64,000 bases of DNA from an uncultured Gammaproteobacteria bacterium. GTDB lineage: Bacteria; Patescibacteriota; Patescibacteriia; UBA10025; JAHIVO01. A model generated the notes under the pieces. It was not told where the DNA came from, did not search any database, and saw only the letters and a program-made list of their open reading frames with translations. Made by a program: the position numbers and the translations under genes. Location: NCBI GenBank assembly GCA_964628855.1, contig CAZVMV010000001.1:77145-141144 (forward strand), in the 5' to 3' direction. Positions 46,742 to 64,000 of this stretch are shown in pieces. Position 1 is the first letter of the stretch, and every line of letters begins with the position of its first letter.

Positions 46742-46788
46742 AACGTAAGTATAACAAAAATTTCGCCATGCTGACAGGCACAGCTTGA

Positions 46789-47769
46789 CTAAAACTTGGC
46801 CAGGCTGAATTTACCTGACCAGTCTCTGATTTGGCGGGGACTGACTCTCCTTTTTGCCTGGATTTGCGTCCGCTGGTATAGGAGTCTAGGCAAAGACAAA
46901 ACCAAGGAAATAATTATTTTTGCATACACCCAGATATTTTCAGTAAATGACAATCGATAATCCGCATCGACTGACTCCCTGCCTTTCACGGCTGGTAACC
47001 AAAAGCGGAGCGGGTAATTCTTAATGGCTGAGAAAATCCTGTTTCGCCCGGAGTGGTACCGCCGGAACATATATGACATTTTTTTAGTGGTCGACGCCAC
47101 TTTATGGTAAACCACGGCACGTGGCTCATACATTATCTTCCACCCGCGTAACCTGGCTCTGATAGACAGGTCCGTATCCTCGATATATGCAAAAAAATGG
47201 CGGTCAAAATAACCACCTGATGTTTTACAATCCTCCAACATTTCACGCCTGTACAGCGCTGCCCCAGCCCTGGCAGAAAAACATTCTTCAGTGTGTTCAA
47301 ATTGCCCAACGTCTTCCTGCCCATATCCGCGGGTTATGACTTTCATGGTACCTGGCTGGAGAAAATCTCCGGCAGAATCAATTTTACTACGTTCATAGAA
47401 AAACTTGATTTTGCTGGAAATGGCACCGATGGACTCGTCCTGCTCAGCCAAACTAACTAATCCTCTGAGCCAATCCTTTTCAACCTCGGTATCGTTATTC
47501 AAGGTAACGAGATACTTGCTGTCCGAATTTTGCATCGCCTCTGTTATGCCGATATTATTCCCTTCGGCAAATCCTGTATTCTTATGCAGACAGATTACTT
47601 TGACTTTAGGAAAGTTTTTTTCGACGAAAGGCACAGAATCATCGCTGGATCCGTTATCGACAAATATAACGCTAAAATCCTCATAAGTCTGCGCAAAGAC
47701 AGAACGCAGGCATACATCCAAATGCTCACGGCCGTTCCAATTGACTATGATAATCGAGACGGTCGACAT
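46789..47769 (-). CDS. Family 2 glycosyltransferase.
   Basis: VSIIIVNWNG, DNGSSD and the DxD context form a GT-A fold signature. 326 aa. Confidence 0.8.
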   Translation of the reverse strand: MSTVSIIIVNWNGREHLDVCLRSVFAQTYEDFSVIFVDNGSSDDSVPFVEKNFPKVKVICLHKNTGFAEGNNIGITEAMQNSDSKYLVTLNNDTEVEKDWLRGLVSLAEQDESIGAISSKIKFFYERSKIDSAGDFLQPGTMKVITRGYGQEDVGQFEHTEECFSARAGAALYRREMLEDCKTSGGYFDRHFFAYIEDTDLSIRARLRGWKIMYEPRAVVYHKVASTTKKMSYMFRRYHSGRNRIFSAIKNYPLRFWLPAVKGRESVDADYRLSFTENIWVYAKIIISLVLSLPRLLYQRTQIQAKRRVSPRQIRDWSGKFSLAKF

Positions 47770-47912: not shown

Positions 47913-48350
47913 CTAGAAAGTAGTGCAACCAGCAACGCTGGTCACCTTATCGCCTGACGCACCGTCACCTGCTACATAGAAGTAGTTTGTCGGAGTTGTA
48001 GGCGATTCAAGTGTCGCGTAAAGTACGTAGGTAGAGACATTACGTGTCGCACTCGTGCATTGCTCATAAACATAATGCCTTGTAGTAATCGGGTCGTCTG
48101 GCAATTTGGAAATATAATTCGGGACTAGCGGAGTATTGAGTGCAGTGTAGGCTACGTTTGGATAACCACCGTTATTGTCATCCGCATACAGTGTCAAGGC
48201 AGTCTTGACCTGAGAAATATCTGATTTGCGGGTCGCGTCGCGGGCCTTTTCACGGGCACCGTTTAAAGCGACTAACCCGATGGTTGCCAAAATACCGATG
48301 ATGGCGATAACCACCAATAACTCAATTAAAGTGAAACCTTTTTTATTCAT
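47913..48350 (-). CDS. pilA: Major type IV pilin (PilA-like).
   Basis: MNKKG|[47 protein letters not shown] and a C-terminal Cys pair. Start set at the internal ATG preceded by GGGGGTGAAG, which drops 53 codons of the tracked ORF. First gene after pilC and its own promoter. Confidence 0.8.
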
Positions 48351-48507
48351 TTCTTCACCCCCTTTCGATGGTCCGCAAACTGCTGACATCCCATGCTTAC
48401 CATGGCGTTCACAGATCACGGATCCGTTTGACCCGTGCTTGGTCATGGTGGCAAGGAACTGCCGGAAGATGGCGGAGGATTTATTTGCTAAGAAAGAGCA
48501 AAAGTCC

Positions 48508-48536
48508 AATAATACTGACTTAATAATAGCACATTT
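48508..48536 (-). promoter_or_regulatory. Candidate sigma70-type promoter for pilA.
   Basis: Minus-strand TTGACA-N17-TATTAT lies ~160 nt upstream of the pilA ATG and just downstream of the pilC stop. No sigma54 -24/-12 element was found. Confidence 0.3.
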
Positions 48537-48553
48537 TCAGCAACTTGTCAAAG

Positions 48554-49762
48554 CTAGATGGCATTCGACATATTGTAAATCGGCATGATTATGGCGGCTA
48601 CCAGGAACCCTACCGCTACGCCCATAATGACCATGATAATGGGCTCTATCAGGGTGGTTAAGTTGGCCAGAGAATTCTCCAACTCACGGGTATAAAAATC
48701 AGCTACCTTCAACAATATCTTGTCCAATTGGCCCGACTGTTCACCGACACTCATCATTTGGGACAACATGATAGGGACGTCCTTGCTTTTCACGAATACG
48801 CTGGTTATTGAAGCACCAGCTTCGACCTGCTTGATCGTCTCTTGGATGAGTGTGCGATAAATCGTATTGCCCACCACGTCGGAGGTTATGTCCAATGACT
48901 GCGTCAGGGTAACACCGGAAGCCAGAAGCGTTGATAATGAACGTGAAAACCTCGCGATATACAACCGACTGAATATCGGACTGAGAATCGGTAATTTCAA
49001 TTTTAACAGGTCTATCCGTTTTCTGCCTTCTTCGGTCTTCGATATATATCGATAGGCAATGAATAGGCCAATGACCAGAATAAACAAAACCCACCAATAC
49101 GAGGTCAAAAAACCGCTGAGCCCCATCAAAATCCTGGTCGGGAGGGGTAATTGTGTGGCTGATGACTCAAAAATAGAGGTGATTTGCGGCAGCACGAAAA
49201 CCATCATCATCACTGCAACCCCGCCCAAAGCAACCAGAATAAAGGCGGGGTAAATCATGGCGCCGCGGGCCTTGGCCATCATATCATAATCTTTTTCATT
49301 TTGATCAGCCAGATAAACCAAAATCTCATCCAGGCGGCCGGTGGTTTCTGCCGACCTAACCATCTGGATGAAAAAGTTTGAAAATACTTTTGGATAACGC
49401 GCCAGTGATTGCGAGAGTTTGGCGCCACCGTCGACCTCATCGGCAATATCTGAGATGATAGACTTGAATTTGTTATTCTCCGTCTGCCTGACCAGCACCT
49501 TCAGGGCGCGTACGATCGGCACGTTTGACGAGATCATCACGGAAAGCTGGCGTGAAAACATGACAACTTCTTTCGGCTTCACCGGTTTCCCAAATGTCAT
49601 ACCGCCGCTCAAGAACTTCATCTTTTTCTGCTCTTTCAGGTCTACGATAAAAAGATTTTTGTCGCGCAAAATACCATAGGCCACATTCTCTGTTGGGGCC
49701 ACGACGACACCGCTCACCAGCTCGCCCAATTGACTCCGCGCTTTGTATGCGTAATCGGCCAT
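48554..49762 (-). CDS. pilC: Type IV pilus platform protein PilC (GspF family).
   Basis: 402 aa with two GspF repeats and three TM segments. Confidence 0.9.
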   Translation of the reverse strand: MADYAYKARSQLGELVSGVVVAPTENVAYGILRDKNLFIVDLKEQKKMKFLSGGMTFGKPVKPKEVVMFSRQLSVMISSNVPIVRALKVLVRQTENNKFKSIISDIADEVDGGAKLSQSLARYPKVFSNFFIQMVRSAETTGRLDEILVYLADQNEKDYDMMAKARGAMIYPAFILVALGGVAVMMMVFVLPQITSIFESSATQLPLPTRILMGLSGFLTSYWWVLFILVIGLFIAYRYISKTEEGRKRIDLLKLKLPILSPIFSRLYIARFSRSLSTLLASGVTLTQSLDITSDVVGNTIYRTLIQETIKQVEAGASITSVFVKSKDVPIMLSQMMSVGEQSGQLDKILLKVADFYTRELENSLANLTTLIEPIIMVIMGVAVGFLVAAIIMPIYNMSNAI

Positions 49763-49775
49763 GGTTTATTTAAAT

Positions 49776-50162
49776 TTATTTCACGTATTTTTTAATCTTC
49801 TCCACCACCTCTGAAGGCATGAAGTGTGCCTTGATGAGGTAGTCAGACGCGCCTAAATCAAGGCCTTTCTGGACATCGTCTCGCTGACCAAGGTTAGTCA
49901 GTAAAATTACCGGGATGTTCTTCGTCGAAGGATCCTCTTTCAGACTCTTTAATACGTCAAACCCGCTCATCTTTGGGAGCACAATGTCCAGCAAGATGAT
50001 TGACGGCAACTCGGCCTGGGCCATCTTGAGGCCTTTTTCCCCATCCGGTGCCAGATGGACTTCGAAATTTTCCAGGTTAAGCTTGGCCACGTACATGCCG
50101 GCCAAAAAAGCGTCATCTTCGACTAAAACGATTTTTATTTTGGATCCCTTGGTGTTAGCCAT
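49776..50162 (-). CDS. Stand-alone CheY-like receiver (PilH/PilG-like) inside the pil operon.
   Basis: IVLVEDD, LLDIVLPKMSGFDVL and LLTNLGQRDDVQKGLDLGASDYLIK. Paralogue of 34825..35232. Confidence 0.8.
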   Translation of the reverse strand: MANTKGSKIKIVLVEDDAFLAGMYVAKLNLENFEVHLAPDGEKGLKMAQAELPSIILLDIVLPKMSGFDVLKSLKEDPSTKNIPVILLTNLGQRDDVQKGLDLGASDYLIKAHFMPSEVVEKIKKYVK

Positions 50163-50187
50163 ATGGTTATTTCTAATGTATTAGAAT

Positions 50188-51939
50188 TTAAGTTTGGGTA
50201 GCTCGTAAAACTTCTGAAAGCGACGTTTTTCCTTCTAGCGCTTTCAGGATGCCGTCCTGGGCCATGGTCAGGATGTTCTGGCGTTTGGCCGTTTCCTTGA
50301 TGGCGTCGATCGTCGGATTAGTAACGATCACATTTTTCAGTTCTTCGTCAATTTCAATTATTTCGTCAATCAAAATGCGCCCCTTATATCCTGTATTTTC
50401 ACATCTCAGGCAACCCTGGCCTTCGTGGAACAGCAATTTTTCGGCGTTGTCGCCAAGCCTTGATTTCAGCATCTCAGGAGGAATATTAGACAGTTCCCGC
50501 TCAACTTTTTTCCTCAACTCCACAGGAATCTCATTAACCTTCTGGCAATACGGGCATAAACGGCGGACTAAGCGTTGGGCTACCACGGTAGTCAATGATG
50601 CGGTGATTAGGAACGGCTCAATTTTCATGTCAATCAGACGCGGAATGGCTCCGAACGCATCATTGGTATGCAAGGTGGACAATACCAGATGGCCAGTCAG
50701 TGCAGCATGGACACCCAACTCGGCCGTTTCATTATCACGGATTTCGCCGACCATGATGATATCCGGATCTTGGCGCAGGATAGAGCGTAGACCGGCCGCG
50801 AACGTTAAGCCAACCTCGGCATTTATCTGAGATTGATTCACGCCATTTATATAATACTCGACCGGATCCTCTAGAGTGATGATATTAATCGACTCGTCGT
50901 TTAGAATCGTCAATAACGCAGACAAAGTGGTTGATTTTCCCGATCCGGTAGGCCCGGTCAATAGGATCATGCCTACGGTCTTTTCTACCGATCGTTTCAT
51001 GACTTCCAGGTCACGACCTTCGAAACCGAGCTTTTCCAGGTCTAGGACGACTGCCGCACGATCGAGAATACGCATCACGACCTTCTCGTTCGAAAACAAC
51101 GGCAAGGTCGAAACACGGTAATCGATCACGCGCCCCTCCCACTCCGTCCTGAACCGTCCATCCTGCGGCACCCTAGTTTCGTCTAACTTAAGGTTTGACA
51201 AAACTTTGATACGGGCGACAATCGCGCCATGAACATATCGCGGTAAGACCAACGAAGTATGCAATACTCCATCAACACGATAACGGACGCGAGTCTCGTT
51301 TTCTACCGGTTCAATATGAATATCAGAGGCTTTCCCCTCAACCGCGTGGCGCAATATCACGGATACCATTTTTGAAACTGGTGCAGATTTCACCACTTCC
51401 TCCATCCCCTTTTCCTGGCCCATCATCTCGTCCAAGGCATCGCCATGCTTGTCCTCGGTGCTGGCCAAAGCCTCCTCCACCTCTGCTCCCAGTGTAGCGT
51501 ACTGTTTTGAAGCGTACTGGAAACCGCTCAAGGAAATGATGAAATATTTCACTTTATAATTGTTTTCCCTGGCGATATATTCGATCGCTTCGATTGCCTT
51601 GAAATCAGTCGGGTCAACCATGGCTACGCTTACATCCCCTAAATTTTTCTCAAAAGCGACGATATGGTAGTTTTCCGATAATTCTCTTGGTATCACATTC
51701 AATATCCCCTGCGTGATCGTCTTTCCAAACAGGTCCATATACGGTACGCCCAGTACTTTGCTCTTGGCCTTCACTAAATCTTCCTCTGCCACATAGCCGC
51801 GTTTCATGATCTGGTCTATCAATTCAGCTTCACTGTGTGTTTGGGACTGCAAATCAGCCAGCTTGTCCGGCGGGATCAGGCCTTGTTCAATTATGATATC
51901 AATAACAGTTTTTCGTTGTGTATTATCTGTGTCAGTCAT
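50188..51939 (-). CDS. pilB: Type IV pilus assembly ATPase PilB (GspE family).
   Basis: T2SSE_N N-terminal domain. Walker A GPTGSGKST. Asp box. His box. Tetra-Cys CPYCQ...CLRCENTG. 583 aa. Confidence 0.9.
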   Translation of the reverse strand: MTDTDNTQRKTVIDIIIEQGLIPPDKLADLQSQTHSEAELIDQIMKRGYVAEEDLVKAKSKVLGVPYMDLFGKTITQGILNVIPRELSENYHIVAFEKNLGDVSVAMVDPTDFKAIEAIEYIARENNYKVKYFIISLSGFQYASKQYATLGAEVEEALASTEDKHGDALDEMMGQEKGMEEVVKSAPVSKMVSVILRHAVEGKASDIHIEPVENETRVRYRVDGVLHTSLVLPRYVHGAIVARIKVLSNLKLDETRVPQDGRFRTEWEGRVIDYRVSTLPLFSNEKVVMRILDRAAVVLDLEKLGFEGRDLEVMKRSVEKTVGMILLTGPTGSGKSTTLSALLTILNDESINIITLEDPVEYYINGVNQSQINAEVGLTFAAGLRSILRQDPDIIMVGEIRDNETAELGVHAALTGHLVLSTLHTNDAFGAIPRLIDMKIEPFLITASLTTVVAQRLVRRLCPYCQKVNEIPVELRKKVERELSNIPPEMLKSRLGDNAEKLLFHEGQGCLRCENTGYKGRILIDEIIEIDEELKNVIVTNPTIDAIKETAKRQNILTMAQDGILKALEGKTSLSEVLRATQT

Positions 51940-51954
51940 ACTTATTTTAATTAC

Positions 51955-52851
51955 CTATGGTTGAAAAGGATTTTCGCGGTATGGGGCCGCCATTACGTCA
52001 GTAGATGATTCATTGCCGCTCGCGTCCACTCCGGTCACTGTGTAGAAATATGGGACGTTCGGGATGACCGTATCTAGAATATATTGCATATTTTCCGAAT
52101 CGTTCTGAATGTCGGCGCTTACCAAATTGCCAAGGAGTCCCCGTTCACTGGATTTGTAGATATGGACCGTACTGAAATCAGGGTCCAGAGGCACAAGCCA
52201 AGAGATTTTCACCTGACTGTCCGTCACATTCTGCACCGTTACATTCAATGGAGCGCTAGGCGGAAACGTGTCATGGGGCGTACCGGGAAATTGCTGGCCA
52301 TTTTTTGAAACAGCGCCCTCGGCATTGACCGTTAGAACGATATAATAATAAGTTGTGAGGTTAGCTAGATCGTGATCAGTGTAGTTCTGCAATGTGTCAG
52401 TAGCCTTCACCGTGGCGGTGTAAACTTCCTCCCCCAGAACGCCGACCTGCTCAGAACGGTACACTTTCACGGTAGTAAAATTTTTCTGTAGAGGAAGCTG
52501 CCAGCTGACGAGCAGGCGCCCACCCGTGCCAGGATCAGTGACGGCAATCTTTTCTGGCGCAAGCGGTACGTCAGCATCTAAATAAACTCCGGAAAGCTGT
52601 TCGGCAAACCCTGGGGCATTTTTTTCCATAAACGTCCCGATTTGTGCATCATTAAGCAGTCCTTCATTAAGCGGTGTTACTACGACCGGCTGCTCCAACG
52701 CGGTCAGGGTAGTATCCGGTACAGTATTCGTAACTGAAGGCTTGGCAAAATATGTACTATAAATGAAATATCCGCCCGGGAGCAAAAGGGTGCAAAAAAT
52801 TATCAATAATATTTTCGTCCTTTTATTTAACCCCGTTTTTTGCACTAACAT
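51955..52851 (-). CDS. Membrane-anchored protein with two fibronectin-type-III-like domains.
   Basis: N-terminal TM helix. Two FN3-like modules (LLVSWQLP...VKVYRS...YYYIVLTVNAEG and VKISWLVP...VHIYKS...YFYTVTGVDASGNES). Confidence 0.5.
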   Translation of the reverse strand: MLVQKTGLNKRTKILLIIFCTLLLPGGYFIYSTYFAKPSVTNTVPDTTLTALEQPVVVTPLNEGLLNDAQIGTFMEKNAPGFAEQLSGVYLDADVPLAPEKIAVTDPGTGGRLLVSWQLPLQKNFTTVKVYRSEQVGVLGEEVYTATVKATDTLQNYTDHDLANLTTYYYIVLTVNAEGAVSKNGQQFPGTPHDTFPPSAPLNVTVQNVTDSQVKISWLVPLDPDFSTVHIYKSSERGLLGNLVSADIQNDSENMQYILDTVIPNVPYFYTVTGVDASGNESSTDVMAAPYRENPFQP

Positions 52852-52861
52852 AATTCTACGC

Positions 52862-53443
52862 TTATTGATAATAAGTCGTTAGGTTGAGCGTATAGGCGCT
52901 GCTCCCCGGCAAGTATGATAGAGAGTTGAGCTCAAAGAAAGGCACCGAATTGCTCAGCTGGTCCAGAAAATTCTTCAGACCGGCATAACTCTCCAAACCG
53001 TCAAAACTGACGGTGATGTTCAGTTTCCGAATAACCGGCACCGCCGCCCCAGCACTCGCATTCGTGCTCGAGAATGCCCCACTGTCTATCGTTACGAGTT
53101 CCAGGCCGTTATCAGTTATCAGTTGCTTCAGCTTCATAATCACATAGGGCAGATCAGCCTCATGCGGCAATACTGATTGGATATGCTTCAATTGACTGTA
53201 GTCCAAGGCCTCATATTGTTTTTTCAGGTTCTTTAGTTTATCCAGCGCCCGTTGCTGCTGGTCGATAATTTGTTGTTTATTCTCAATGTCCGCCACGCCC
53301 ACCACCCTGATTTTGTCGACTGTTTGTTTGACAAAAAACCAGTAGCCGCCAGCTAAGATGACCAGCACCAACGCAATGACGATGCCGATATAATAGCGGT
53401 TAATGAAGGCTAGGACTGATTTTAATATTTTCCCCTTTTCCAT
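52862..53443 (-). CDS. pilO: PilO-like T4P alignment-complex protein.
   Basis: Single TM helix, a coiled-coil segment (QQIIDQQQRALDKLKNLKKQYEAL) and a C-terminal ferredoxin-like domain. Positioned after pilN. Confidence 0.6.
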   Translation of the reverse strand: MEKGKILKSVLAFINRYYIGIVIALVLVILAGGYWFFVKQTVDKIRVVGVADIENKQQIIDQQQRALDKLKNLKKQYEALDYSQLKHIQSVLPHEADLPYVIMKLKQLITDNGLELVTIDSGAFSSTNASAGAAVPVIRKLNITVSFDGLESYAGLKNFLDQLSNSVPFFELNSLSYLPGSSAYTLNLTTYYQ

Positions 53444-53449
53444 AGGTGG

Positions 53450-55354
53450 TTATTGAGGCCAATAAAATATTGTCGGCGTAATCATGAGATTGACGGAAAA
53501 TTTTACGGTGTCCTGTGTTTGCGCGATTAGTAGGCTGCCGCTGCCGGCTCCCAGGCAATTCGTATCCTCGGTGAAACAGATGCCGGTCACGGTTACCTTG
53601 GTCACGAAATCGGTGGCGCGCTTGAAGACTTCGAATTGTTTTATGGCTGATTCATAATCCTGGCCGATGGCTGCCAGCGAAACGCTGCCATTGACATCCG
53701 CGGTCAACGAAGTGAAATAAACGCCGGAAACTGTATAATTTTCTAGCTTGTTGAATATCCCGGACCAATAGACGTGCTTCTTTATCAATGTATCAATATT
53801 TCCCATTACTTGATTTAAATTTCGCACCTCTTCCTGCAATTGCTGGTAACTGTTTATTTCAATGCGGTTACTGGCAATCTGGCCGTTTAATCCGCTCACT
53901 TTTGCGGAAACATTTGAATAATAATAATTTGCCACTACCCATCCGCCAAAAACTATTCCGACAGCAATGATAATGCTCAATATGCCAACAAGAATTTTTG
54001 AAATGGGCAGGGCTTTTTCAATGATCTCTTCGGGCACCAGGTTCACTTCCCATTCGATCGGACTTAACATTTTGCCGGCGCCCTTTACGTCGGTCAATTT
54101 GACTCCGGGAATATTCTGCACCGAACCAATTTGTTTCAATGATGACTTTTTGGATGATATTTTTTTACCGCTGAATAAATCTTTGATTGCCTTCCAAAGT
54201 TTTTCCCACCACGAAACCTGGTCCACCTTTACTTCACTTGCCTTTTCTGCCGGGGGTGGCGGTGGGACGATTGGCGGGGCAGTTTTGATCGACGGGGGTG
54301 GCGGTGGTTTAGGCGTACTAATTATTGGCGTAACTACTGACTGACTCTGGACTGGTTTGACAGGCATGGGTGGAATAAATTCTTTGACCGTTTGTTTCGG
54401 TGTCTCGAGAATTTTATTTATATTTGGTTCTGGCCGGGTGAAAGGCGGCATGATTTTGTGAGGCACTGCACTATCACGATGCAACATTGGCTGCGGGATA
54501 AATGTTGGCGCTGATGGCGCAGCAACTTTTTGCTCAACACGCGCCACGATCGGCGGTTCTGGAGTTTTGATGAGCTTCTCTGGCTCTACGGGGGTCATGG
54601 AAATAATTTTTTGTTTGGGGGCGCGGACAAAAAATTTCTTAAACCAGTTAGCTATTTTTTTCCAAAATGATACTTTGGGCGCTTTCGGCTGTAGGGCCGG
54701 TATGGAAGTTTGCTTTATCACTTTGAATGCCGGATCAATTTTTGGGAAGCCTTCATGAGGAATATCAAAACGACGACCGTTAGTAGTGACCTCGGGCATT
54801 GTAACGCCATTATCCGGCTTCCTGCCATTCGTCGTGACGGTGATGACTTCGGTCGGTTTTGGTTTACGCACAGGTTCGACGGCTGGAATTTTTTCTGCGC
54901 GGATGGGCTGGTACTTTGGGAATGCATCTTTGGCCGTAACCGGAGGTACACTAGGCGCTGGCACCAGCGCTTTCGGTTTGCCGCCAAACATGGAGCTGAA
55001 AAAATTACTCATGCGTACTCCGAACGGTTTGGAGCTGCGGACCTGCATTCTTTCCTGTTCTGGCGCGACCATCTTTATTATCGGCCGTGGTGCTGGTTGC
55101 GGTTTGGGTTTCTCATAAACCAATTTCTCCTCGACCATCACTTTTTTCTCGGGCCACTGTTTTTCTGCATCAGCCACAACAGGCTTCGGCTTGGCGAAAG
55201 CCTGTTTGAAAAAACCCAAAACTCCGCCCCGCTTGATGGCTGGCTTACTTTTTTCAAGCTTAACAGGCCCAGTCATCTCAACGATGGGCGTGGGTTGGTA
55301 TTTTATTTTTCCCGTTTTAATTTTTTCCTCCGATGGGAGGAGGTTTATTGACAT
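53450..55354 (-). CDS. pilN: PilN-like protein with a ~430-aa Pro/Lys-rich cytoplasmic linker.
   Basis: Starts MSINLLP, the PilM-binding INLLP motif. Residues ~20-445 are low-complexity P/K/V-rich. Single TM helix ILVGILSIIIAVGIVFGGWVV, then a coiled coil and the periplasmic domain. 634 aa. Confidence 0.6.
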   Translation of the reverse strand: MSINLLPSEEKIKTGKIKYQPTPIVEMTGPVKLEKSKPAIKRGGVLGFFKQAFAKPKPVVADAEKQWPEKKVMVEEKLVYEKPKPQPAPRPIIKMVAPEQERMQVRSSKPFGVRMSNFFSSMFGGKPKALVPAPSVPPVTAKDAFPKYQPIRAEKIPAVEPVRKPKPTEVITVTTNGRKPDNGVTMPEVTTNGRRFDIPHEGFPKIDPAFKVIKQTSIPALQPKAPKVSFWKKIANWFKKFFVRAPKQKIISMTPVEPEKLIKTPEPPIVARVEQKVAAPSAPTFIPQPMLHRDSAVPHKIMPPFTRPEPNINKILETPKQTVKEFIPPMPVKPVQSQSVVTPIISTPKPPPPPSIKTAPPIVPPPPPAEKASEVKVDQVSWWEKLWKAIKDLFSGKKISSKKSSLKQIGSVQNIPGVKLTDVKGAGKMLSPIEWEVNLVPEEIIEKALPISKILVGILSIIIAVGIVFGGWVVANYYYSNVSAKVSGLNGQIASNRIEINSYQQLQEEVRNLNQVMGNIDTLIKKHVYWSGIFNKLENYTVSGVYFTSLTADVNGSVSLAAIGQDYESAIKQFEVFKRATDFVTKVTVTGICFTEDTNCLGAGSGSLLIAQTQDTVKFSVNLMITPTIFYWPQ

Positions 55355-55574
55355 ACCTGGGTTTTATTTTTGTTTTTTCGGAGCAAATGTAAAAGCCGGT
55401 ATTTTTGTGGCAATTTACCGAACTCCGCCGCTGCTTCTTTATTTGCAAATAGCGGTATTTATTTACATATATATTGTAGCATATCTAGCAAAATTAGTCA
55501 ATACCTGAAAACAATTATCTTCAAAATTTATCCTATTTTAATTAATAAATAATTCTTTGTCATATTTTTATTTA

Positions 55575-55604
55575 ATAAAAAACAATGGGTTTTTCGCCCA
55601 TTGT
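55575..55604 (-). terminator. Rho-independent terminator after pilM.
   Basis: CAATGGG-TTTTTCG-CCCATTG. On the minus strand it is followed by TTTTTTATT. Confidence 0.45.
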
Positions 55605-55624
55605 TCAGTATGTTTTATAATAAA

Positions 55625-56734
55625 TTACACTATTTCCCGCATTGCCAGTCCGATCGAAACCGCCATCCTAGGGCCCAGCTCCTTCAATAATGCGTCGATT
55701 TCTACCGGATGAATGACTCGTGCCCACGGATCACCGATAAACGACTTGATGTTGAATATCCCCTCGATCGTGTTTGGCATATTCGCTAAAAATGAGGAAC
55801 CGCCGGTCAAAATGACTTTCGTGATTGGTTTCTTGTTCTGATTCTGATAAATGTTCAGGATATAACGGATCTCATTAATTATGGAATTTATGACGTAGCT
55901 CACCGGTTTCGGAAGTTTGCTGATTGATTCTGACGTCACCGACATCCCGACGTCACGCTTGAATTGCTCGGCTTGCTCCTGGGTCAGTCCCATAGTTTCC
56001 TGCAATGCGCGCGTAATTCCCTTACCACCAACGTCAATACTGCGGTTTAAAATCGGAACGCCGCTAGAAAAAATTATTATACTGGAAGTCTGACTGCCGA
56101 TATCTATCACCATCACCGGGTTCATGTCATTGCCGACCAGCGAACGTTCGAGCGCAAAAGATTCCGTTTCCAGCCCGACCAGCTGCAGCCCGACCAGTTT
56201 GAAAAGCTCTACATACCGGTTGACCAAATTTTTCGGGGCAGCCGTCATCAATATCCGTAAATTTGTTTTTGCTGGCGTGGCGCCAATTTCTTTTTTGTCA
56301 TTTTTTACATCTTTTTTCCCGTCGGAGTTGGCTTGCGGGGCAGCGGCCTCGCCAGGCTCTTTCAAAACTTCCCAGTCGAGAATCATTTCTTCAAGCGGGA
56401 TCGGTACGAATTTTTTCGCTTCCCAGCGGATGGCAGAGACCAAATCCTTATCCTTCATAGCCGGCAGGTTGATGATGGAACTGAACACTGAAAATGACGG
56501 CAAGGCTGCAATTGCGGCAGTAGCCCCAGCCCTGGTCTGTTTCATCAGCTCCTGTAGCTGGTTGGCGATTGCCGCTCTGGCAGCCGGATTGTCATCCTTG
56601 ATGATATTGTAAGTCTCGTCGATAAAACCATAAGTAACCAGCTGTGGTCGCCCATTTCCGGCGTTACGCAGTTCGACCAGTTTGATGCTGGCACCACTGA
56701 GATCGATACCGAGATAATTTAGATTTTTTGCCAT
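55625..56734 (-). CDS. pilM: Type IV pilus assembly ATPase-fold protein PilM.
   Basis: Actin-like fold (GIDLSGASIKLVEL). Carries a Lys/Asp-rich insertion. 369 aa. Upstream of pilN. Confidence 0.85.
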   Translation of the reverse strand: MAKNLNYLGIDLSGASIKLVELRNAGNGRPQLVTYGFIDETYNIIKDDNPAARAAIANQLQELMKQTRAGATAAIAALPSFSVFSSIINLPAMKDKDLVSAIRWEAKKFVPIPLEEMILDWEVLKEPGEAAAPQANSDGKKDVKNDKKEIGATPAKTNLRILMTAAPKNLVNRYVELFKLVGLQLVGLETESFALERSLVGNDMNPVMVIDIGSQTSSIIIFSSGVPILNRSIDVGGKGITRALQETMGLTQEQAEQFKRDVGMSVTSESISKLPKPVSYVINSIINEIRYILNIYQNQNKKPITKVILTGGSSFLANMPNTIEGIFNIKSFIGDPWARVIHPVEIDALLKELGPRMAVSIGLAMREIV

Positions 56735-56745
56735 ATATTTTTTAT

Positions 56746-59700
56746 TTATGGAGTGACGCGATGGTAGACCGGCAAAGCCTGAATGAAATCGACGAGACCG
56801 GGCGGAGTGTTCGCCACTACCCTCCCATCATACAGTATCTGTTCGGCCGGATCAAGATTCTTCATGTACTTGCGGTCAAAATTGTAGCCGGTACCGGCCA
56901 CGAACAAACCGGAAACAGATAACGGAATCTGATAATCAATAGCTAGTGTTGTAGAGTTCTTCTGCAGACATCGTGTTTCCCCCGCTGCGGCGATAAGTTC
57001 GGTCGTATCACTGCCCCGACGTATGCGCAGGTCAAATTCTGAAATACCAGCAACACCCGGACGGTATGTCGTACGCGCAATAAACGCATTGATCTGACGA
57101 GTAATATCAGAAAACGCGACCTGTTGGTTGTTCCCAAAAGCATTCAAAGACACGTTTTGTGCCACTTCGCTTACCTCTGCAGTAAGCGGCAATGCCCACG
57201 GGGCTCCGGCAGTTGCCGTAATCTGTGCTGCGGTGGGATAATTTTGCAATAATCCCTGACGTAATTCCATCGCAGTAGTGCCGGCTGCACACATAGTCGT
57301 ATGTACCTGGGCTTTCAATATTTCCGCATTTATAGGGATGCTAATCGGGAATTGCAGATACGCGCGTTGGGCTGTCGTACCGTTCCAGCCGAATAATAGG
57401 TTTTGGGTAGACGAATCAGTGGTCGTACTTGTTACGGTTGATCCTATTGGTGGCGGCGTGGTCGGATACGTTGCCCGCCGAGGTGAATACTCGATTACCA
57501 GCTGTGGCGCGTTGGTTGCCGCAGAGTCGTAGGTCTGGAATCCACGGGATTCACCCGTCGCCGCATCCCCTTCTTTTATTACTAAACCCAGATAGTTACC
57601 GGCGGAATAATTATCCTTGCTGACAAAACGCTGAATGATGGCTTTCAGGTCCGGAGTCTGGTACCATGTGCCGGATACCCAGTTGCTGTTGATCAGGAAA
57701 TTGACGCTGTTCGAAGTCGCAATATTATATAAAGTGGGATTCGGCGAACTGGTGAAATTTAGCGTGCTCGCATTCTCCCCGTCGATCAGATACAGGCGGG
57801 CATTGAAATCACCAATACCTGAACCGTTACTCCTCAAACGTAAATAGGCGCTCTTGATCTCTGCCCCGGCTGGTACACCCAACGGGAACCTCAAGAAAGA
57901 ACGATTTGTCGTACTGGCGCCAGGTCTGCCGAAACTACTGGCTACATCCTGATAAGCGTTCAAATATGTGGAACCGTCATACGATACGAAAGTATCGTCA
58001 ACCGATTCAGTATATGAATATGAAGGCGCTTTTCTACCTGTGCTGATTATGCCCTCCAGATTCTCCACCACAGTTGTGGTCGTAGGATCATCAGCAGTCG
58101 AAGGATTATCAATGGCTGCAACCACCGAGGATACTTTACTGATCAGTGAATTGATATAGACATTTCCTCTGACGATGATGGCGGCAGACGGCAACTCGAC
58201 TAAATTCGTTATATGAGGATCATCACATGTTCCACTACCACAATCCGCATCCACCCGGCAAACTGAATTGTCGCTGCAACGTTTGTCGTAATAGATGTTT
58301 GCATTTATTTCCAGATTGCCGTCAACGACAATTACTCCTGCTCCGGAAGTTGCCGGATTTGTAGAATCATCACCCTGTAGGAATGTCATGTCGCTATTAA
58401 TGGTATATGTCGGCTGTCCGTGGAAATAGTAAACCTTATTTCCCAGAACCGTATTGCGAGCCGGCAGGCCGGTCCAGGTGAAGGCACCGCTAGTGCTGAT
58501 ATCCGTGCCCACTCCTTCGACAACAGTTGTGCCGTGCCTATTCTTACTGCCATTGGTGCGGCCGACCAGGCCATTTACATCCAGCTTCGCTAGCAGATCT
58601 GCGCCAAGCGTCTGGATGGATGGCTGGTTCTGGACTAATGGGCTGAAACCTGGCTGTTCCGGCAACTGAGATGTGGGTGAGCCGGTAGTAGTGCCGCCAT
58701 AATAACCAGAGATGCCGCTGATGGCGCCGCCTGATTCAATCAAATATGTCGAGGTATAATCGCCTGTACCGCGTGGTGGAGGTGCGAGGGAAATGTTCTG
58801 GCTGGCATGGATGTCGGCGAACATTGTCTTCACCCACGGTATGCCCAATAATGCACCGGCGGGCATAAATTCTACCCAACCATTCCCACCCTGCGCAATG
58901 CCCGGCGACCACAAGGAATAATCAATATTATTTTTACCGCAGTAATAGAGCTCAAACGTATCCCAGCCGTAATCCAAACATTGTGGGTAAACAGTGTCAG
59001 TACATTCGTTTGATGAATGGTAGTTTTTAAGTACACCGGTATCCATGAGTCGTTTCTCAATATGCCAATTAGCTGTGCTCGTTAAGCTCATTTCCGGAAT
59101 GTTACCAACGGCATACATATATGTACCATCAATAGCGAAACCATTTATCCCATAATCTCCCGATGGATTATTCAATTCCATCGCCCCATTACTTAGCACG
59201 ACATTGCCTGGCTGGGAATAACCCCACCCATTTGTAGTTGCAGTGCTAAAAGGCGTTCCAGAATTTTTATCCCATTTTTGGTAATGCCAGCGCGGGGCGC
59301 CACCGGCGTACAGATATGTTCCGTCAACTGACAGGGCTACTGCTGAGTCTGACGAAGTGGATGAATACTGGATAAATCCGCCCGTGCCAAACCCGGCGTC
59401 TGGAGAGCCGGTCACTTTGTCGTATTTTCCGATAAGCAAATTTAATGTCCCGCTGAAAATGTTACCTCCGACATACAAAGACTGGCCATCCAGGATTATA
59501 TCTGAGGCAAAATAAGAATTTGCCGGACCGGTCACCGCCCCGCCGGTACCAAAGGCTGGCTCTAGGGTGCCATTATCAAGTCGGCGTTTCTCGATGCGCC
59601 ATTTGTCCGGACCCGAACCAGAAGTATTGGCATTCGAGCCGGCGATGTACATGTATGTACCGTCGGCAGTTATGCTGAATATCGCATTGTCGCAACCCGG

Positions 59701-62700
59701 GATACCGCATACCGGCAGCACTTCATCGATTAAGCCAGACTGCCATCCGCCGGTGGTATTAGTTGTGTACAGATTGCCGTTTGCTTTCAAATACTTTGCG
59801 ATTTGCCAGTTCGAGACGCCGCCTTTGGCAGCGACATAAATATATTTCGCGTCCTGGGTGATATACAAACCATAGTAAGCATATCTTGCCGGCTCGATTA
59901 CCCCGTCACCATCAAAACTGTTTACGAGAGCACCAGTGTCCAGCCGGCGTTTCTCTATGCGCCACTGACTGACATTATCTAGCGTACCAACGACGTACAT
60001 ATAGGTTCCATTTGAATCAATTACAATGTCAGTTGCGTCTTTGGTGGCACTGCCGCCAGTAATAACGCCGTTTGTCCCGAAAGTCGTACTACATCTGGCG
60101 GCGGTGCAAACTTGGCCATTGTCCAGCCGGCGTTTCTCGATCCGCCAGCCGTCATTTGCTGGATCAGCGTCTTTGGTGTTGCCATAGGAACCGATTGCAT
60201 ACAAGTATTGATTGGTACTGTCAATTGCAACCTGTGTCGCCATCCCCTGCGGTCCATCCACTATGCCATTGTCATTAAAAGCGCCGCAGTATAAGGCGCT
60301 GAAATATTTCTCGTTCCATATTACGTGCGGATTACCGAACCGGTCCAATTTGATTAATGGGTTATTGCTCCTGCCGGTTGTAGTTTTAGACAGGTTTAGG
60401 TTGGGGGTATTTATTGTCTGTGAGACATTGAATGTATTACCCCCAGCAGTTACCCAGGCACTGCCGGACCATTGGGCCATTAAAATATCCGGCTGTAATA
60501 TTCCGCTCCCGTCATCGTCGTTATAATCAGACCAGGCAATGTGCGGAATGTTGTTGGTATCGAAAACTACCGACTGGGAATAGTCATACGCATGGTCAAT
60601 ATTCTTATTGACCTGCAAATTCGTAATGTCCGCCTGCCCGCTCACGGATACCCAGGCGCTCCCGTTCCAGCGGCGGTATAAAAGTTTGTTCGGGTCGCGC
60701 CAGACTATACCGGGCACATGGTTGGAATCAACTGCCACATCAGGATAAACTCCATCAGGTGTGGGTATGCCCAAACCCGCAATTGAACCCACGTCATTGT
60801 TTAACGAAAGGTTAGCTCCGCCAAAACCGCTTGTCCCATCATTGCTAGCCGTGACCCAATTGGTGCCGTTCCAGTACCGGTAAAAAATATGATTACCAGT
60901 ATTCAATCCGGGCGTTCCGGCGGGTACTTGCTGTTGCCAAGTGACCATAGGTGTCGTGCCGTCCATGGCCAATCTCGGAAAACTGGAAAAATTATTTACC
61001 GTTTTACTGACATCCAAATTATTTGCATCATTGTTCATCGGCTGCCATGAACCGCTGACTAGTTGTTTGAAATAAATTCCAGTAGTGGCGCCTGACCAAG
61101 GTCCGTGCCGGAATACGACATTCAATGTGCCTGTACTATCTATCTTTAAAGTAGGAGTCTGGGCCGGATTTGTGCTTACTTCCTGTTGGGCTGTCCATGT
61201 GCCGGCCGACGCGTCCCAGCGTGAATATACGATTTTTCCGTATTCATTTGCCCAACCGCCTTCCTGCCAGACGATGTGCGGATTTCCATCACTATCCAGC
61301 GCTAACGAAGGTGACACTGAGCCGTCGCCGTTCGGGTCGATGCCAGTATCCGGATTGGAATTATTACTGACATTAAGCCGGTTAGAAATTTTTTCTGCGT
61401 CAGTCCAAGCCGGGTCGTACGTAACCCCTGTGACGGTGGCCCATTTGCCGGCCAAGAGTTGGAGATAATAAATATCGAAGGAATTATTGGTTTTATTAAA
61501 TGCAGACCATGCAAGATGAGGGCTGCCATGGCCATCCAGAACCATGGATGATTGCGGCCATTTGGAATAATCCTTTACCCAGCCGTCCTGAGTGGCGTTC
61601 TCAGGGTTCAGCCAGGACGACTTGCTGGTGAAGGCGGAAGTCTGTGCATTCCATCCCCAGCCGAACACGCTGTACAATTTAGTGTCATTTGGGTTTACGT
61701 TCGGGTCAGCCAGGAATGATTGGGAGTCAATTTCAGTCCCGGACAATTGGTACGGACCAGCATTGCCCCTGCCGTCATTGTATGTGCCCGCTAATTTCAT
61801 CCAGCCCCAGTCAGTATAGCCCTGGTCAGTTCCGGCTTTCTTGAGCGTCAGGATCCTGGCCCAACCCTCTATGCCGCGGGTGGTGCCGTTGAAATTGGCA
61901 GTGGCTGTAGCCCGGCATTCTTCGGTAGCCGGCGTCGAAGCGTCTACCGGGCAGGTATCTCCAGTTTTGCAGGAATAAAATATGCAAGTGGCAGTGCTGG
62001 GTGACGGACAGTTGCTGAGATCCTTGTCCCAGCAAATCTTGGAGACATCCGTGGAGCAGGTGCCATACTTTTTGCCAGTGCCGTCCTGGGCGTTGTAACA
62101 AAATCCATAGAGCGGGCTGCCGACCGGCGTACCGGCACTCTCGATACAGCTATTGGAAACGCAATCCTCATTACGGTAACACCCTCGCTGGGAATCGTCT
62201 GCACAGACTTTAGCATTCATGCTGATCCATCCCAGTCCGGTTTTTGGGGTGGTGGTTGAAACGGAAAATTTGGGTATATAAAGATTTGTGCTGTACAGGG
62301 AGTGCAGGCCCGTCCAGATTGAACCAATGGCGTAAGTCAATTTGAATGGCTGGCTGCTGGTCGGGAATGCCTGGACCTCGGGAGCAGAGTTTAAAATTGT
62401 TGAGGCTCTGATCCGGTATACTTTCCCTCCATCATATCCGGCTGCCCAAACATTTTTTGTATCATACTCAAGTCCCATGATAACCCCACCAGTTGCTTGT
62501 AATTCAAAATCGGATTTGACCCATGTCCCGACATCATTATTGATTTTTAAGACAGAAACAAGCCCTCTGGTACCAGTATCGCCATGACTGACCCACCAAT
62601 AGTTGCCATCAAAAACTATTTCCCGCGGATAACGGTCAGTGCCAGAAGGCAATGAGAAGGTTTTTACCTGGTTGGCTGGATCTATACCGTCAGTCCGGTT

Positions 62701-64000
62701 GAGACGGGATACACTCGCCCCATTAAAATTGTTTACCCAAATCGACTGACCGTCAAAGTACGGCTGCTGAGGGGTATTGATACCATACGCGCTACAACGC
62801 ACCGGTGTCGGTGATGGAGATGTGCCATTACAATTTATCTCCTTGGTTTCGCCGAGATTCAAGCTGCGCCTGATACGTACTACACCGTTACGAGAGGCGA
62901 TCCAAAAATCCTTACCGTCCCAGACTAATCCCGACTGCCCGGAGTCCGGGGTTGCACATGATGCATCGCCATAATTTACCGTCTCAATCAGTTGACCAAC
63001 CGTAATTCCGCCATATCTGGCCGGATCATTCACTGTGGCGAAACGGTATAATCGGCAGGCGGCTTGGCCTGTCGCCCACAAGTCCGTACCGTCATATACC
63101 AACCGCATAAAATCTTCGTTAGGGTAGGCTCCGGAATAATTAAACTTTTCCGTAACAAAGGTAGAAGGATTTATCCGATATAACAAAGATGGTCGTTGTC
63201 CTAGAGCGCTATTAACTAGATGAGGCGCAGCCCAGAGATATTGACCATCATATGCGATTTGTTTGAACGAATATTCAAACGCAAGTAGTCCGGACCCACC
63301 GGTAACATTTAATGTCTTATCTTCTGAAACATTACTTTGACTGACAGACTGGCCGGAAGAGCTCCAGGCATACCCCTCGAGCGGGTTAATTTCCCGGGAT
63401 GCTTCAAAATTGCTATTAACCCCCCAGCTCAATGCCGTATCGCCGCTGTAATCTGCCGGCGGGTTTGCGAAAAAATTCAGGTAATTTAACGAGATCCAGC
63501 CGGCACTGGTAGTCCACGCCCAACCGACAATATTATTTTTAATAAGGAATAAGGTGGCGACCGGTCCGAAAGTAGTCGGGACAGATTCCTGGTTCTGTGC
63601 CTTGACCTTGAATTCGTAACGGACAGACGGATCAAGCCCTGTAGCGGTGATCCCATTATCCCCGCTCCATCCCGTACCGACCGTAGTACCTTTCACCGCC
63701 CAATGCCCAACAGTATCCGGAGTCAGGTTGCAGTTCAGCGCCCAGTCGACTGTGACTCGTCCGTTAAAGTCGTCATCAGTATTTAAATAACCCGTATCAT
63801 CAATAGTCCCGTCCGCTTTATATTTTGTTATGCAAATCGCAAAATTGGTGTTTGCGGGATTTCCGTTTTCCTGCACCTTCACGTTTATTTCGCCTCCTGG
63901 CAATGACTGCACAATCGGCCGACTGGGGACATTGGCCAGCGTATATTTACACTGCGCGGCAACCGGACCTTCTGTAGTGTAATCACCGGTGCCGTCAATT
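56746..64000 (-). CDS. Giant multidomain surface/adhesin-like protein, at least 2,417 aa. Its N-terminus lies beyond the window end.
   Basis: The frame stays open from 56746 through position 64000, where the track assigned a GTG as an artificial start. Domains in order: FN3-like; ~6 propeller blades ([FY]DGxxxW); an 18-Cys region; BNR/W repeats (YRYWNGTNW, YRRWNGSAW); ~7 delta-60-type repeats (WRIEKRRLDNGxxxxxFGTxG); a tandem pair of DNRLRE-like beta-sandwich modules (FLRFPLGVPAGAEIKSAYLRL / YLQFPISIPINAEILKAQV). Ends 11 nt before pilM. Confidence 0.8.
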   Translation of the reverse strand, partial: IDGTGDYTTEGPVAAQCKYTLANVPSRPIVQSLPGGEINVKVQENGNPANTNFAICITKYKADGTIDDTGYLNTDDDFNGRVTVDWALNCNLTPDTVGHWAVKGTTVGTGWSGDNGITATGLDPSVRYEFKVKAQNQESVPTTFGPVATLFLIKNNIVGWAWTTSAGWISLNYLNFFANPPADYSGDTALSWGVNSNFEASREINPLEGYAWSSSGQSVSQSNVSEDKTLNVTGGSGLLAFEYSFKQIAYDGQYLWAAPHLVNSALGQRPSLLYRINPSTFVTEKFNYSGAYPNEDFMRLVYDGTDLWATGQAACRLYRFATVNDPARYGGITVGQLIETVNYGDASCATPDSGQSGLVWDGKDFWIASRNGVVRIRRSLNLGETKEINCNGTSPSPTPVRCSAYGINTPQQPYFDGQSIWVNNFNGASVSRLNRTDGIDPANQVKTFSLPSGTDRYPREIVFDGNYWWVSHGDTGTRGLVSVLKINNDVGTWVKSDFELQATGGVIMGLEYDTKNVWAAGYDGGKVYRIRASTILNSAPEVQAFPTSSQPFKLTYAIGSIWTGLHSLYSTNLYIPKFSVSTTTPKTGLGWISMNAKVCADDSQRGCYRNEDCVSNSCIESAGTPVGSPLYGFCYNAQDGTGKKYGTCSTDVSKICWDKDLSNCPSPSTATCIFYSCKTGDTCPVDASTPATEECRATATANFNGTTRGIEGWARILTLKKAGTDQGYTDWGWMKLAGTYNDGRGNAGPYQLSGTEIDSQSFLADPNVNPNDTKLYSVFGWGWNAQTSAFTSKSSWLNPENATQDGWVKDYSKWPQSSMVLDGHGSPHLAWSAFNKTNNSFDIYYLQLLAGKWATVTGVTYDPAWTDAEKISNRLNVSNNSNPDTGIDPNGDGSVSPSLALDSDGNPHIVWQEGGWANEYGKIVYSRWDASAGTWTAQQEVSTNPAQTPTLKIDSTGTLNVVFRHGPWSGATTGIYFKQLVSGSWQPMNNDANNLDVSKTVNNFSSFPRLAMDGTTPMVTWQQQVPAGTPGLNTGNHIFYRYWNGTNWVTASNDGTSGFGGANLSLNNDVGSIAGLGIPTPDGVYPDVAVDSNHVPGIVWRDPNKLLYRRWNGSAWVSVSGQADITNLQVNKNIDHAYDYSQSVVFDTNNIPHIAWSDYNDDDGSGILQPDILMAQWSGSAWVTAGGNTFNVSQTINTPNLNLSKTTTGRSNNPLIKLDRFGNPHVIWNEKYFSALYCGAFNDNGIVDGPQGMATQVAIDSTNQYLYAIGSYGNTKDADPANDGWRIEKRRLDNGQVCTAARCSTTFGTNGVITGGSATKDATDIVIDSNGTYMYVVGTLDNVSQWRIEKRRLDTGALVNSFDGDGVIEPARYAYYGLYITQDAKYIYVAAKGGVSNWQIAKYLKANGNLYTTNTTGGWQSGLIDEVLPVCGIPGCDNAIFSITADGTYMYIAGSNANTSGSGPDKWRIEKRRLDNGTLEPAFGTGGAVTGPANSYFASDIILDGQSLYVGGNIFSGTLNLLIGKYDKVTGSPDAGFGTGGFIQYSSTSSDSAVALSVDGTYLYAGGAPRWHYQKWDKNSGTPFSTATTNGWGYSQPGNVVLSNGAMELNNPSGDYGINGFAIDGTYMYAVGNIPEMSLTSTANWHIEKRLMDTGVLKNYHSSNECTDTVYPQCLDYGWDTFELYYCGKNNIDYSLWSPGIAQGGNGWVEFMPAGALLGIPWVKTMFADIHASQNISLAPPPRGTGDYTSTYLIESGGAISGISGYYGGTTTGSPTSQLPEQPGFSPLVQNQPSIQTLGADLLAKLDVNGLVGRTNGSKNRHGTTVVEGVGTDISTSGAFTWTGLPARNTVLGNKVYYFHGQPTYTINSDMTFLQGDDSTNPATSGAGVIVVDGNLEINANIYYDKRCSDNSVCRVDADCGSGTCDDPHITNLVELPSAAIIVRGNVYINSLISKVSSVVAAIDNPSTADDPTTTTVVENLEGIISTGRKAPSYSYTESVDDTFVSYDGSTYLNAYQDVASSFGRPGASTTNRSFLRFPLGVPAGAEIKSAYLRLRSNGSGIGDFNARLYLIDGENASTLNFTSSPNPTLYNIATSNSVNFLINSNWVSGTWYQTPDLKAIIQRFVSKDNYSAGNYLGLVIKEGDAATGESRGFQTYDSAATNAPQLVIEYSPRRATYPTTPPPIGSTVTSTTTDSSTQNLLFGWNGTTAQRAYLQFPISIPINAEILKAQVHTTMCAAGTTAMELRQGLLQNYPTAAQITATAGAPWALPLTAEVSEVAQNVSLNAFGNNQQVAFSDITRQINAFIARTTYRPGVAGISEFDLRIRRGSDTTELIAAAGETRCLQKNSTTLAIDYQIPLSVSGLFVAGTGYNFDRKYMKNLDPAEQILYDGRVVANTPPGLVDFIQALPVYHRVTP

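Follow-up and report, generated by a model that had tools for sequence, protein, structure and literature searches.

Patescibacteria, the candidate phyla radiation (CPR), account for a large part of bacterial diversity, and those brought into culture live on other microbes, to which they are attached. The means by which they recognize and hold their hosts are largely obscure, type IV pili (T4P) being the one system shown to matter (PMC12206443, PMC9894109). Here we describe a giant gene lying directly before pilM in a T4P locus, in a stretch of 64,000 nucleotides (the window) from contig CAZVMV010000001.1 of assembly GCA_964628855.1 (positions 77,145 to 141,144). Its product is a cell-surface protein of 4,266 amino acids (aa) from a Patescibacteria bacterium, and it belongs to a family of pilM neighbours for which we found no earlier description.

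The giant protein would work most like PilY1/PilC, ComZ, PilX2 of Nanosynbacter lyticus TM7x and the giant stalked adhesins, and it tests negative for the class III signal of pilins, for the PilY1/PilC domain and for secretin domains. Like PilY1/PilC it is a large, exported non-pilin protein with propeller-like domains, genetically tied to T4P, in which variable adhesive modules accompany a conserved C-terminal part. However, no PilY1/PilC domain was matched in it, its conserved part is a solenoid plus tail instead of the PilY1 propeller, its gene lies next to pilM and not in a minor-pilin operon, and the giant form looks membrane-anchored. The ice-binding adhesin of Marinomonas primoryensis offers a parallel in its N-terminal anchor, its Ig/FN3-like stalk and its distal sugar-binding modules and beta-solenoid. 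That adhesin differs in its type I secretion with an outer-membrane plug, in its solenoid fold and repeats, and in having no link to pili. ComZ of Thermus thermophilus (PDB 6qvi) is also encoded in a T4P locus and also lacks canonical pilin sequence motifs (PMC6561018), but its solenoid is inserted in a pseudopilin fold, whereas no pilin-like fold or motif was found in the giant's family. Moreover, comZ sits among minor pilin genes and not before pilM, the two share no sequence similarity, and ComZ binds DNA while the modules added to the giant look glycan-binding. PilX1 and PilX2 of TM7x are Patescibacteria proteins with an N-terminal hydrophobic helix, no PilD signal and extra domains (a jelly roll and a seven-bladed propeller), PilX2 being required for host binding (PMC12206443). 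These proteins, which we compared by description and not by sequence, are much smaller, and pilX2 lies in a pilin-only locus. Very large proteins with attachment or carbohydrate modules, conserved beside type II secretion or type IV filament loci of ultra-small or predatory bacteria, have been reported from Omnitrophota (bioRxiv 10.1101/2023.11.21.568195); thus the theme of giants beside such loci is not new. The Omnitrophota proteins come from another phylum, are far larger, follow the secretion locus instead of preceding it, and are not known to share the scaffold.

The analysis confirmed the giant gene. It lies on the minus strand, which the original prediction had left unstated, and the frame 56746-63999 translates to 2,417 sense codons with a single stop (TAA, 56746-56748) and no other stop up to the window end. 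The open reading frame (ORF) listing gives 56746..63912 and 2,388 aa, a shorter product because that listing begins at the first start codon. Since the frame stays open for 7.25 kb, and homologues were found at E = 0, a chance ORF was dismissed. An exhaustive profile search retrieved a 4,266-aa protein (P0012) whose C-terminal 2,417 residues are identical to the window frame. It is therefore the complete product, with 1,849 residues outside the window, so that the first visible residue is residue 1850 (visible aa 1-153 are aa 1850-2002 of 4,266). The claim that the frame runs past the window end was thus correct.

According to our comparisons, the original prediction missed the main point: the giant is not a free-standing mosaic of domains but a conserved scaffold of about 500 aa, found before pilM and inflated by insertions. 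A widespread Patescibacteria family of about 500 aa includes many members of 450-650 aa that carry the giant's C-terminal tail and the module preceding it. These short proteins have in common an N-terminal hydrophobic segment and repeated GWAWSxNxGWIS motifs, followed by a PWLxTxYGDIY...NATY module, rungs of the type G-x-G-x-I-V-V-x-G-(D/N)-L and a tail reading ...AExIIYDGRxLANTPPGLxDF..LPxW. We built a profile from six of these proteins; with hmmsearch it matches the giant in colinear order at visible aa 154-215, 697-788, 1601-1957 and 2357-2416, corresponding in order to positions 35-87, 105-185, 127-393 and 414-474 of the profile hidden Markov model (HMM). Profile-profile comparison (hhalign) of the giant with the small family gave a probability of 100% and an E-value of 2.6e-46. 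The colinear match in four pieces and the hhalign result identify the giant as the small scaffold with three large insertions (aa 216-696, 789-1660 and 1958-2356, presumably in loops) and an N-terminal extension. Against orthologues the scaffold pieces are 41-89% identical, whereas the inserts are missing or 23-56% identical, and size varies eight-fold across the family. Some orthologues carry 360-575 extra residues exactly at the third insertion site (L009, 2553-3628; L011, 8776-10001; L012, 11011-12737), which suggests an insertion hot spot where the number of modules varies. The giant clade thus separates fixed parts (scaffold and tail) from swapped ones (propeller-like arrays and modules resembling carbohydrate-binding modules, CBMs). 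The scaffold family is undescribed: the short proteins belong to no Pfam or NCBIfam family and have no PDB relative by sequence, PDB sequence searches with the giant and with the small-family profile returned little or nothing, and the searchable literature yielded neither a described protein upstream of pilM in CPR nor a DUF3494 protein tied to pili. A faint match to DUF7305 on two small members (E 0.05-0.09) was not relied on, and a small-family profile search found no second member elsewhere in the window.

The linkage to pilM is nearly invariant. In the window, pilM (55625..56734, minus strand, ATG at 56734; PF11104 PilM_2, E 1e-39) follows the giant gene in the same orientation after a gap of exactly 11 nucleotides (nt), as previously claimed and as read directly from the junction, and the remaining pil locus continues downstream on the same strand (47913..55354). 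Our promoter and terminator scan, in which site counts stayed within about 1.5 standard deviations of the shuffle means, placed no terminator-like site in the 11-nt gap, in line with the earlier reading, and giant gene and pilM are probably on one transcript. A word-indexed protein search returned only four relatives, three of them of 3,700-3,900 aa and each directly followed by pilM, and the same kind of search with the C-terminal profile returned only 6 matches. Scanning one genome per species added 12 giant loci, nearly all labelled Patescibacteria and one of them on a complete Candidatus Kerfeldbacteria chromosome. The exhaustive search gave 2,165 matches overall, a figure in which parts of the C-terminal profile match independently, and about 30 giant clusters. 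Wherever the contig continues (13/13 loci), the giant gene is followed by pilM, pilN, pilO, an FN3 gene, pilB, a response-regulator gene, pilC and the pilin gene, PilM being 60-89% identical to that of the window.

The small family behaves in the same way. A metagenome scan seeded with the tail motif gave 70 small-family loci, 67 of them informative; pilM lies directly downstream in 66 of these, followed by a pilN-like gene, pilO, pilB, usually a response-regulator gene, pilC and a pilin gene. These counts start from family members and ask for a downstream pilM. Three of the four loci without pilM end within 800 nt of the family gene; the fourth (L079, 1-5191), the only informative one lacking pilM, is a real exception with convergent genes downstream. 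Since PilM of these loci is only 36-51% identical to that of the window (apart from a giant-clade fragment, L082, with 64%), the linkage spans deep lineages. The earlier suggested check for synteny with pilM in related genomes came out in its favour. Source names of the loci (Patescibacteria, Kerfeldbacteria, Kuenenbacteria, Nomurabacteria) agree with the CPR-like organism inferred earlier. A new conserved neighbour of pilM thus extends across at least Kerfeld-, Kuenen- and Nomurabacteria-type genomes, and it is not among the listed CPR pilus components (PMC6744442). Four genome records labelled as Gammaproteobacteria or Lentisphaeria metagenome-assembled genomes (MAGs) carry a Patescibacteria-type giant gene (L010, L012, L013 and L015); in the two whose contig continues (L010 and L012), pilM follows and is 60-68% identical to that of the window. 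These are probably mis-binned or mislabelled contigs.

Adjacency to pilM in 79/80 informative loci is more than chance co-location can account for. This weighs against the idea that the giant is a surface protein for glycan processing or nutrient scavenging, or a coat protein of S-layer type, which shares with the pil genes nothing but a promoter. CBM-like and sialidase-like (BNR_4) folds are indeed typical of carbohydrate-active enzymes, and further large secreted proteins are encoded upstream in related loci, but no catalytic domain was matched by Pfam or NCBIfam. We consider this explanation very improbable.

Further information was obtained from the N-terminus of the full-length protein, which reads MMDKRLTNK-IILGLFVLAAAAVLGGGLYLIAYTTS-HPL: a few basic residues, then 26 uncharged residues, and no site of the G|FTLIE type. 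Every one of the full-length giant orthologues (17/17) has an uncharged N-terminal segment of 21-28 residues after a few basic residues. A class III prepilin motif, defined by a short basic leader, G at -1, a hydrophobic residue at +1 and usually E at +5, was found in 0/73 family members, P0012 included, while pilins from the same locus do match. Thus, of the Sec or class III signal suggested for the N-terminus, an export or anchor signal is present and a class III signal is not. Signal peptides were called by simple rules and cleavage was judged by eye. On these calls, the giant is probably exported by Sec and stays in the cytoplasmic membrane through an N-terminal signal-anchor that is not cleaved. 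Behind the anchor lies a conserved domain (aa 35-290 of P0012) that matches DUF7948 in 6/8 orthologues, followed by another repeat region, with RLLSDG..FGTGG motifs, and by long stretches of FN3-like sequence; a PDB sequence search with the profile of this N-terminal domain found little or nothing. At the other end, the reported lack of a C-terminal transmembrane (TM) helix holds, as no 19-residue stretch in the visible part, C-terminus included, exceeds a mean Kyte-Doolittle value of 1.6. The C-terminal tail was also rejected as a membrane anchor: it has no hydrophobic stretch and forms a short strand and short helices in both structural models.

As for a canonical pilin, that identity was rejected, with the prepilin motif in 0/73 members and no match to N_methyl or to a pilin domain. 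The original prediction of a pilus-associated tip adhesin or host-attachment factor stands in part. Each of the three conditions named as weakening it was checked, and none was borne out. The linkage to pil genes is there, the absence of a class III signal from the 73 members excludes a canonical pilin-type tip adhesin, and a role in adhesion can be put forward as a proposal.

A different kind of tip subunit has to be weighed, however. The hydrophobic N-terminal helix could sit in the filament core as a first, non-canonical subunit (cf. GspK, ComZ and PilX2 of TM7x), or the protein could be secreted and dock to the minor-pilin priming complex like PilY1, with the lectin modules carried at the tip in either case. 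The architecture of PilY1/PilC, with variable modules and a highly conserved C-terminal part, is a parallel in its favour, and the small members look Sec-secreted, as PilY1 is. In addition, the scaffold's best structural matches include ComZ, a tip-located competence pilin with the same type of solenoid and one that PilFind itself misses (PMC6561018), and the large PilX1 and PilX2 of TM7x likewise lack PilD signals, PilX2 having a propeller and being required for host binding (PMC12206443). On the other hand, the prepilin motif and the N_methyl and pilin domains are missing as described, the gene lies among pilMNO while the minor pilins, including a PilX_N-like 451-aa protein, form a separate set near pilD, and with a mass of about 450 kDa, as estimated from its 4,266 aa, on an anchor of 24 residues the protein would be awkward cargo for a tip. 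We regard a tip subunit as unlikely, yet as the main rival of the reading that we favour.

Structural models gave a fold to the scaffold. A 528-aa family member, modelled from 53 sequences, reached a mean predicted local distance difference test score (pLDDT) of 77.6 and a predicted template modelling score (pTM) of 0.67, with a helix (2-36), a beta-rich part (45-270) and a solenoid modelled with confidence (340-500); the stretch 270-325 is poorly modelled. Foldseek placed ComZ first for this model (E 0.01, probability 1.00). The model of visible aa 1600-2417 (pLDDT 75, pTM 0.77) is confident from about aa 1800. In these models the solenoid fits the DUF3494 or ice-binding-protein type 1 fold, a right-handed triangular beta-solenoid. 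The tail, modelled with moderate confidence in both (block pLDDT about 72-87), follows directly after the solenoid in the short members. The shared core combines W-rich beta-hairpins, which the models show as a beta-domain, with a beta-solenoid resembling those of ice-binding proteins and ComZ, and with the C-terminal tail.

Such a core could also be imagined as a structural part of the envelope, forming or lining the route that the pilus takes across wall and S-layer, or bracing PilN and PilO from outside, in place of PilP, PilQ and TsaP, which are absent from these cells without secretin, the giant decorations being secondary. In favour of this, CPR genomes lack PilQ (PMC6744442). The near-invariant place before pilM in distant lineages (PilM 36-51% identical to that of the window), the strong conservation of scaffold and tail, and an N-terminal topology like that of PilN and PilO point the same way. 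Type IV pili of other monoderms, though, are not known to require a component of this kind. Neither sequence nor fold resembles a secretin, PilP or TsaP; in particular, the secretin and N0/N1 domains of PilQ/GspD were not matched in the giant by Pfam or NCBIfam. Conservation of the N-terminus is poor and cleavage there often looks likely, and eight-fold size variation with fast-evolving inserts is unexpected in a machine part. We find this reading less credible still than a tip subunit. More broadly, a search for PilY1/PilC, secretin or catalytic domains on the whole protein, on seven slices and on full-length P0012 gave no Pfam or NCBIfam match.

The visible part of the giant can now be read as alternating scaffold and inserts (all coordinates on the minus strand). 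It opens with the last FN3-like module (63541..64000, aa 1-153) of a long FN3-like region beyond the window. The predicted FN3-like module keeps a weak match, 18.3-18.5 bits against a Pfam cut-off of 25 (slice E 0.0024), and it aligns to FN3-rich regions of orthologues. Scaffold segment 1 (63355..63540, aa 154-215, HMM 35-87) consists of GWAW...GWIS...GYAW W-rich hairpins, 51-65% identical to orthologues. It is interrupted by the propeller-like insert 1a (62245..63354, aa 216-585), which is absent from orthologues or only 23% identical and which holds five to six [FYW]DGxxxW repeats, five of them clear (aa 250, 302, 360, 415 and 463). These repeats agree with the propeller blades described before, while the NHL/lactonase label found no HMM support, the only match being DUF6454 at E 0.012. 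Insert 1b (61912..62244, aa 586-696, 35-60% identical to orthologues) is a Cys-rich linker with 12 Cys at 599-695, and not the 18 first counted.

Scaffold segment 2 (61636..61911, aa 697-788, HMM 105-185), with GWAR...GWMK...GWGW hairpins, is 55-70% identical to orthologues. Next comes insert 2a (60280..61635, aa 789-1240, 28-38% identical to orthologues), whose PHxxW motifs stand at aa 827, 907, 1096, 1152 and 1224. The BNR-like assignment proved sound here, as PF15892 BNR_4 reaches 31.6 bits in 4 stretches on the slice aa 781-1240, above the gathering threshold of 27.3, with only 19 bits on the whole protein. Insert 2b (59020..60279, aa 1241-1660) has six repeats of the form WRIEKRRLxxG...FGTGG, spaced about 52-104 aa apart (at aa 1285, 1346, 1398, 1467, 1571 and 1645), and the insert is present in P0002 and P0004 and not in P0001 or P0003. 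About seven repeats of delta-60 type had been reported: six clear copies were recovered, the seventh was not, and the delta-60 likeness is by eye only, with no NCBIfam match to TIGR02608/DUF5122 and none in Pfam on the slice at E <= 10.

Scaffold segment 3 (58129..59019, aa 1661-1957) joins a GWVEFMP...PWVKT...LAPPPRG module to the predicted right-handed beta-solenoid. Insert 3 (56932..58128, aa 1958-2356) comprises two tandem DNRLRE/CBM96-like beta-sandwich modules, which are tandem duplicates in the window model. Their predicted fold fits the beta-sandwich of solved DNRLRE/CBM96 modules (PDB 8wab, 7vbo; PMC9971899), from which they differ in giving no match to the DNRLRE model in the NCBIfam scan at E <= 0.1 and in belonging to a non-enzymatic surface protein. 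The two DNRLRE-like modules of the original prediction thus hold at the level of the fold and not at that of the family model. The visible protein ends with scaffold segment 4, the C-terminal tail ...GLFVAGTGYNFDRKY...AEQILYDGRVVANTPPGLVDF..ALPVYHRVTP and its stop TAA (56746..56931, aa 2357-2417, HMM 414-474). This tail is the most conserved part (70-89% identity) and also forms the C-terminal end of many otherwise short family members.

Taking these observations together, we favour, at about even chances, a pilus-operon-linked, membrane-anchored adhesin for host glycans, whose lectin-like modules are displayed on a distal scaffold. The DUF7948 domain and the long FN3-like region behind the anchor would form a stalk, with the conserved scaffold at its distal end displaying variable modules. 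In the giant clade three scaffold sites are filled by variable modules: propeller-like arrays, one of them BNR_4-like, and the two CBM96/DNRLRE-like sandwiches, whose modelled fold is that of CBMs binding acidic polysaccharides. The giant protein would be co-produced with the pilus assembly proteins. Pili would capture the host cell and draw it close, the lectin-like modules would then attach at close range to acidic or sialylated polysaccharides of its surface, and scaffold and tail may hold the giant protein to the pilus apparatus. This reading fits the two-step model for Saccharibacteria, in which capture by pili is followed by close-range adhesins (PMC12206443).

Several observations weigh against such an adhesin. 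Many small family members appear to have cleavable Sec signal peptides instead of anchors; therefore the conserved function of the scaffold would be independent of membrane anchoring and may differ from adhesion. Glycan binding is suggested only by predicted folds, and confidence is low in the first 200 residues of the window model and in residues 270-325 of the small one. Furthermore, a place next to pilM in nearly all loci hints that the protein is tied to the machine more closely than through co-regulation alone. It is tempting to propose, as a tentative possibility which we hold less probable than the glycan adhesin, that the scaffold is a near-universal and unrecognized working part of Patescibacteria T4P, either a non-pilin priming or tip piece or an outer guide of a machine without secretin. 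If so, the insertion sites would be plug-in points for host-recognition modules, and giant variants would determine host range directly. The scaffold family is a candidate for the missing link between pilus and host surface. The distinction between fixed and swapped parts offers handles for glycan-binding assays, for the prediction of host range from metagenomes and for genetics in the small number of tractable strains.

Another conserved family, of secreted proteins of 450-1,350 aa, is encoded directly upstream of the scaffold gene and in the same orientation. It was seen at L001 (727-9998) and L002 (94-6163) and in 23/29 small-family loci (examples: L024, 4958-7978; L075, 3705-7766). After an AxA site, their mature N-terminus reads W(T/Q/E)xP(T/S)xxPPxxNxxxP(L/I)N. 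P0004 (1,578 aa) is a member of this family and has propeller-type repeats in common with the giant.

Downstream, the rest of the pil locus lies on the minus strand. Right after pilM stands a terminator-like hairpin with a 10-bp stem and a T run (55580-55606), and a promoter-like site precedes pilN (55535-55563). Together they could separate giant gene and pilM from the rest of the operon, subject to the closeness of such site counts to the shuffle means (within about 1.5 standard deviations). PilN (53450-55354, 634 aa) starts with MSINLLP, a motif that binds PilM in other systems, and continues with a Pro/Lys-rich linker of ~450 aa, presumably cytoplasmic, a single TM helix and a C-terminal part resembling PilN; conservation in more distant loci is confined to the final ~180 aa. 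A PilO-like protein follows. Between pilO and pilB, a protein of 298 aa that combines two FN3 domains with a TM helix at its N-terminus (51955-52851) is conserved in all giant-clade loci and matched in only 1/70 small-family loci. The nearest named relative of PilB, encoded after it, is a protein of a Patescibacteria MAG. A stand-alone response-regulator receiver protein between pilB and pilC (49776-50162) recurs with 50-94% identity in most Patescibacteria loci examined.

The major pilin, downstream of pilC, is listed as a 198-aa ORF with a TTG start (47913-48509). Its more probable start is Met54 (nt 48350), from which the protein reads MNKKG|FTLIELL, a textbook example of a class III signal, and it served as positive control for the prepilin-motif test. 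Directly after the pilin gene (44774-47769, minus strand) come a GT2 glycosyltransferase and a Wzy_C protein of 655 aa, of O-antigen-ligase type and with TPR repeats, an arrangement reminiscent of pilin O-glycosylation systems of the TfpO/PglL type. Farther downstream are PilD, three N_methyl minor pilins (229, 214 and 254 aa) and the weakly PilX_N-like 451-aa protein, the minor pilins forming their own set next to pilD and apart from pilMNO. An Rfam search returned no match in the window, which also encodes EF-Tu and EF-G.

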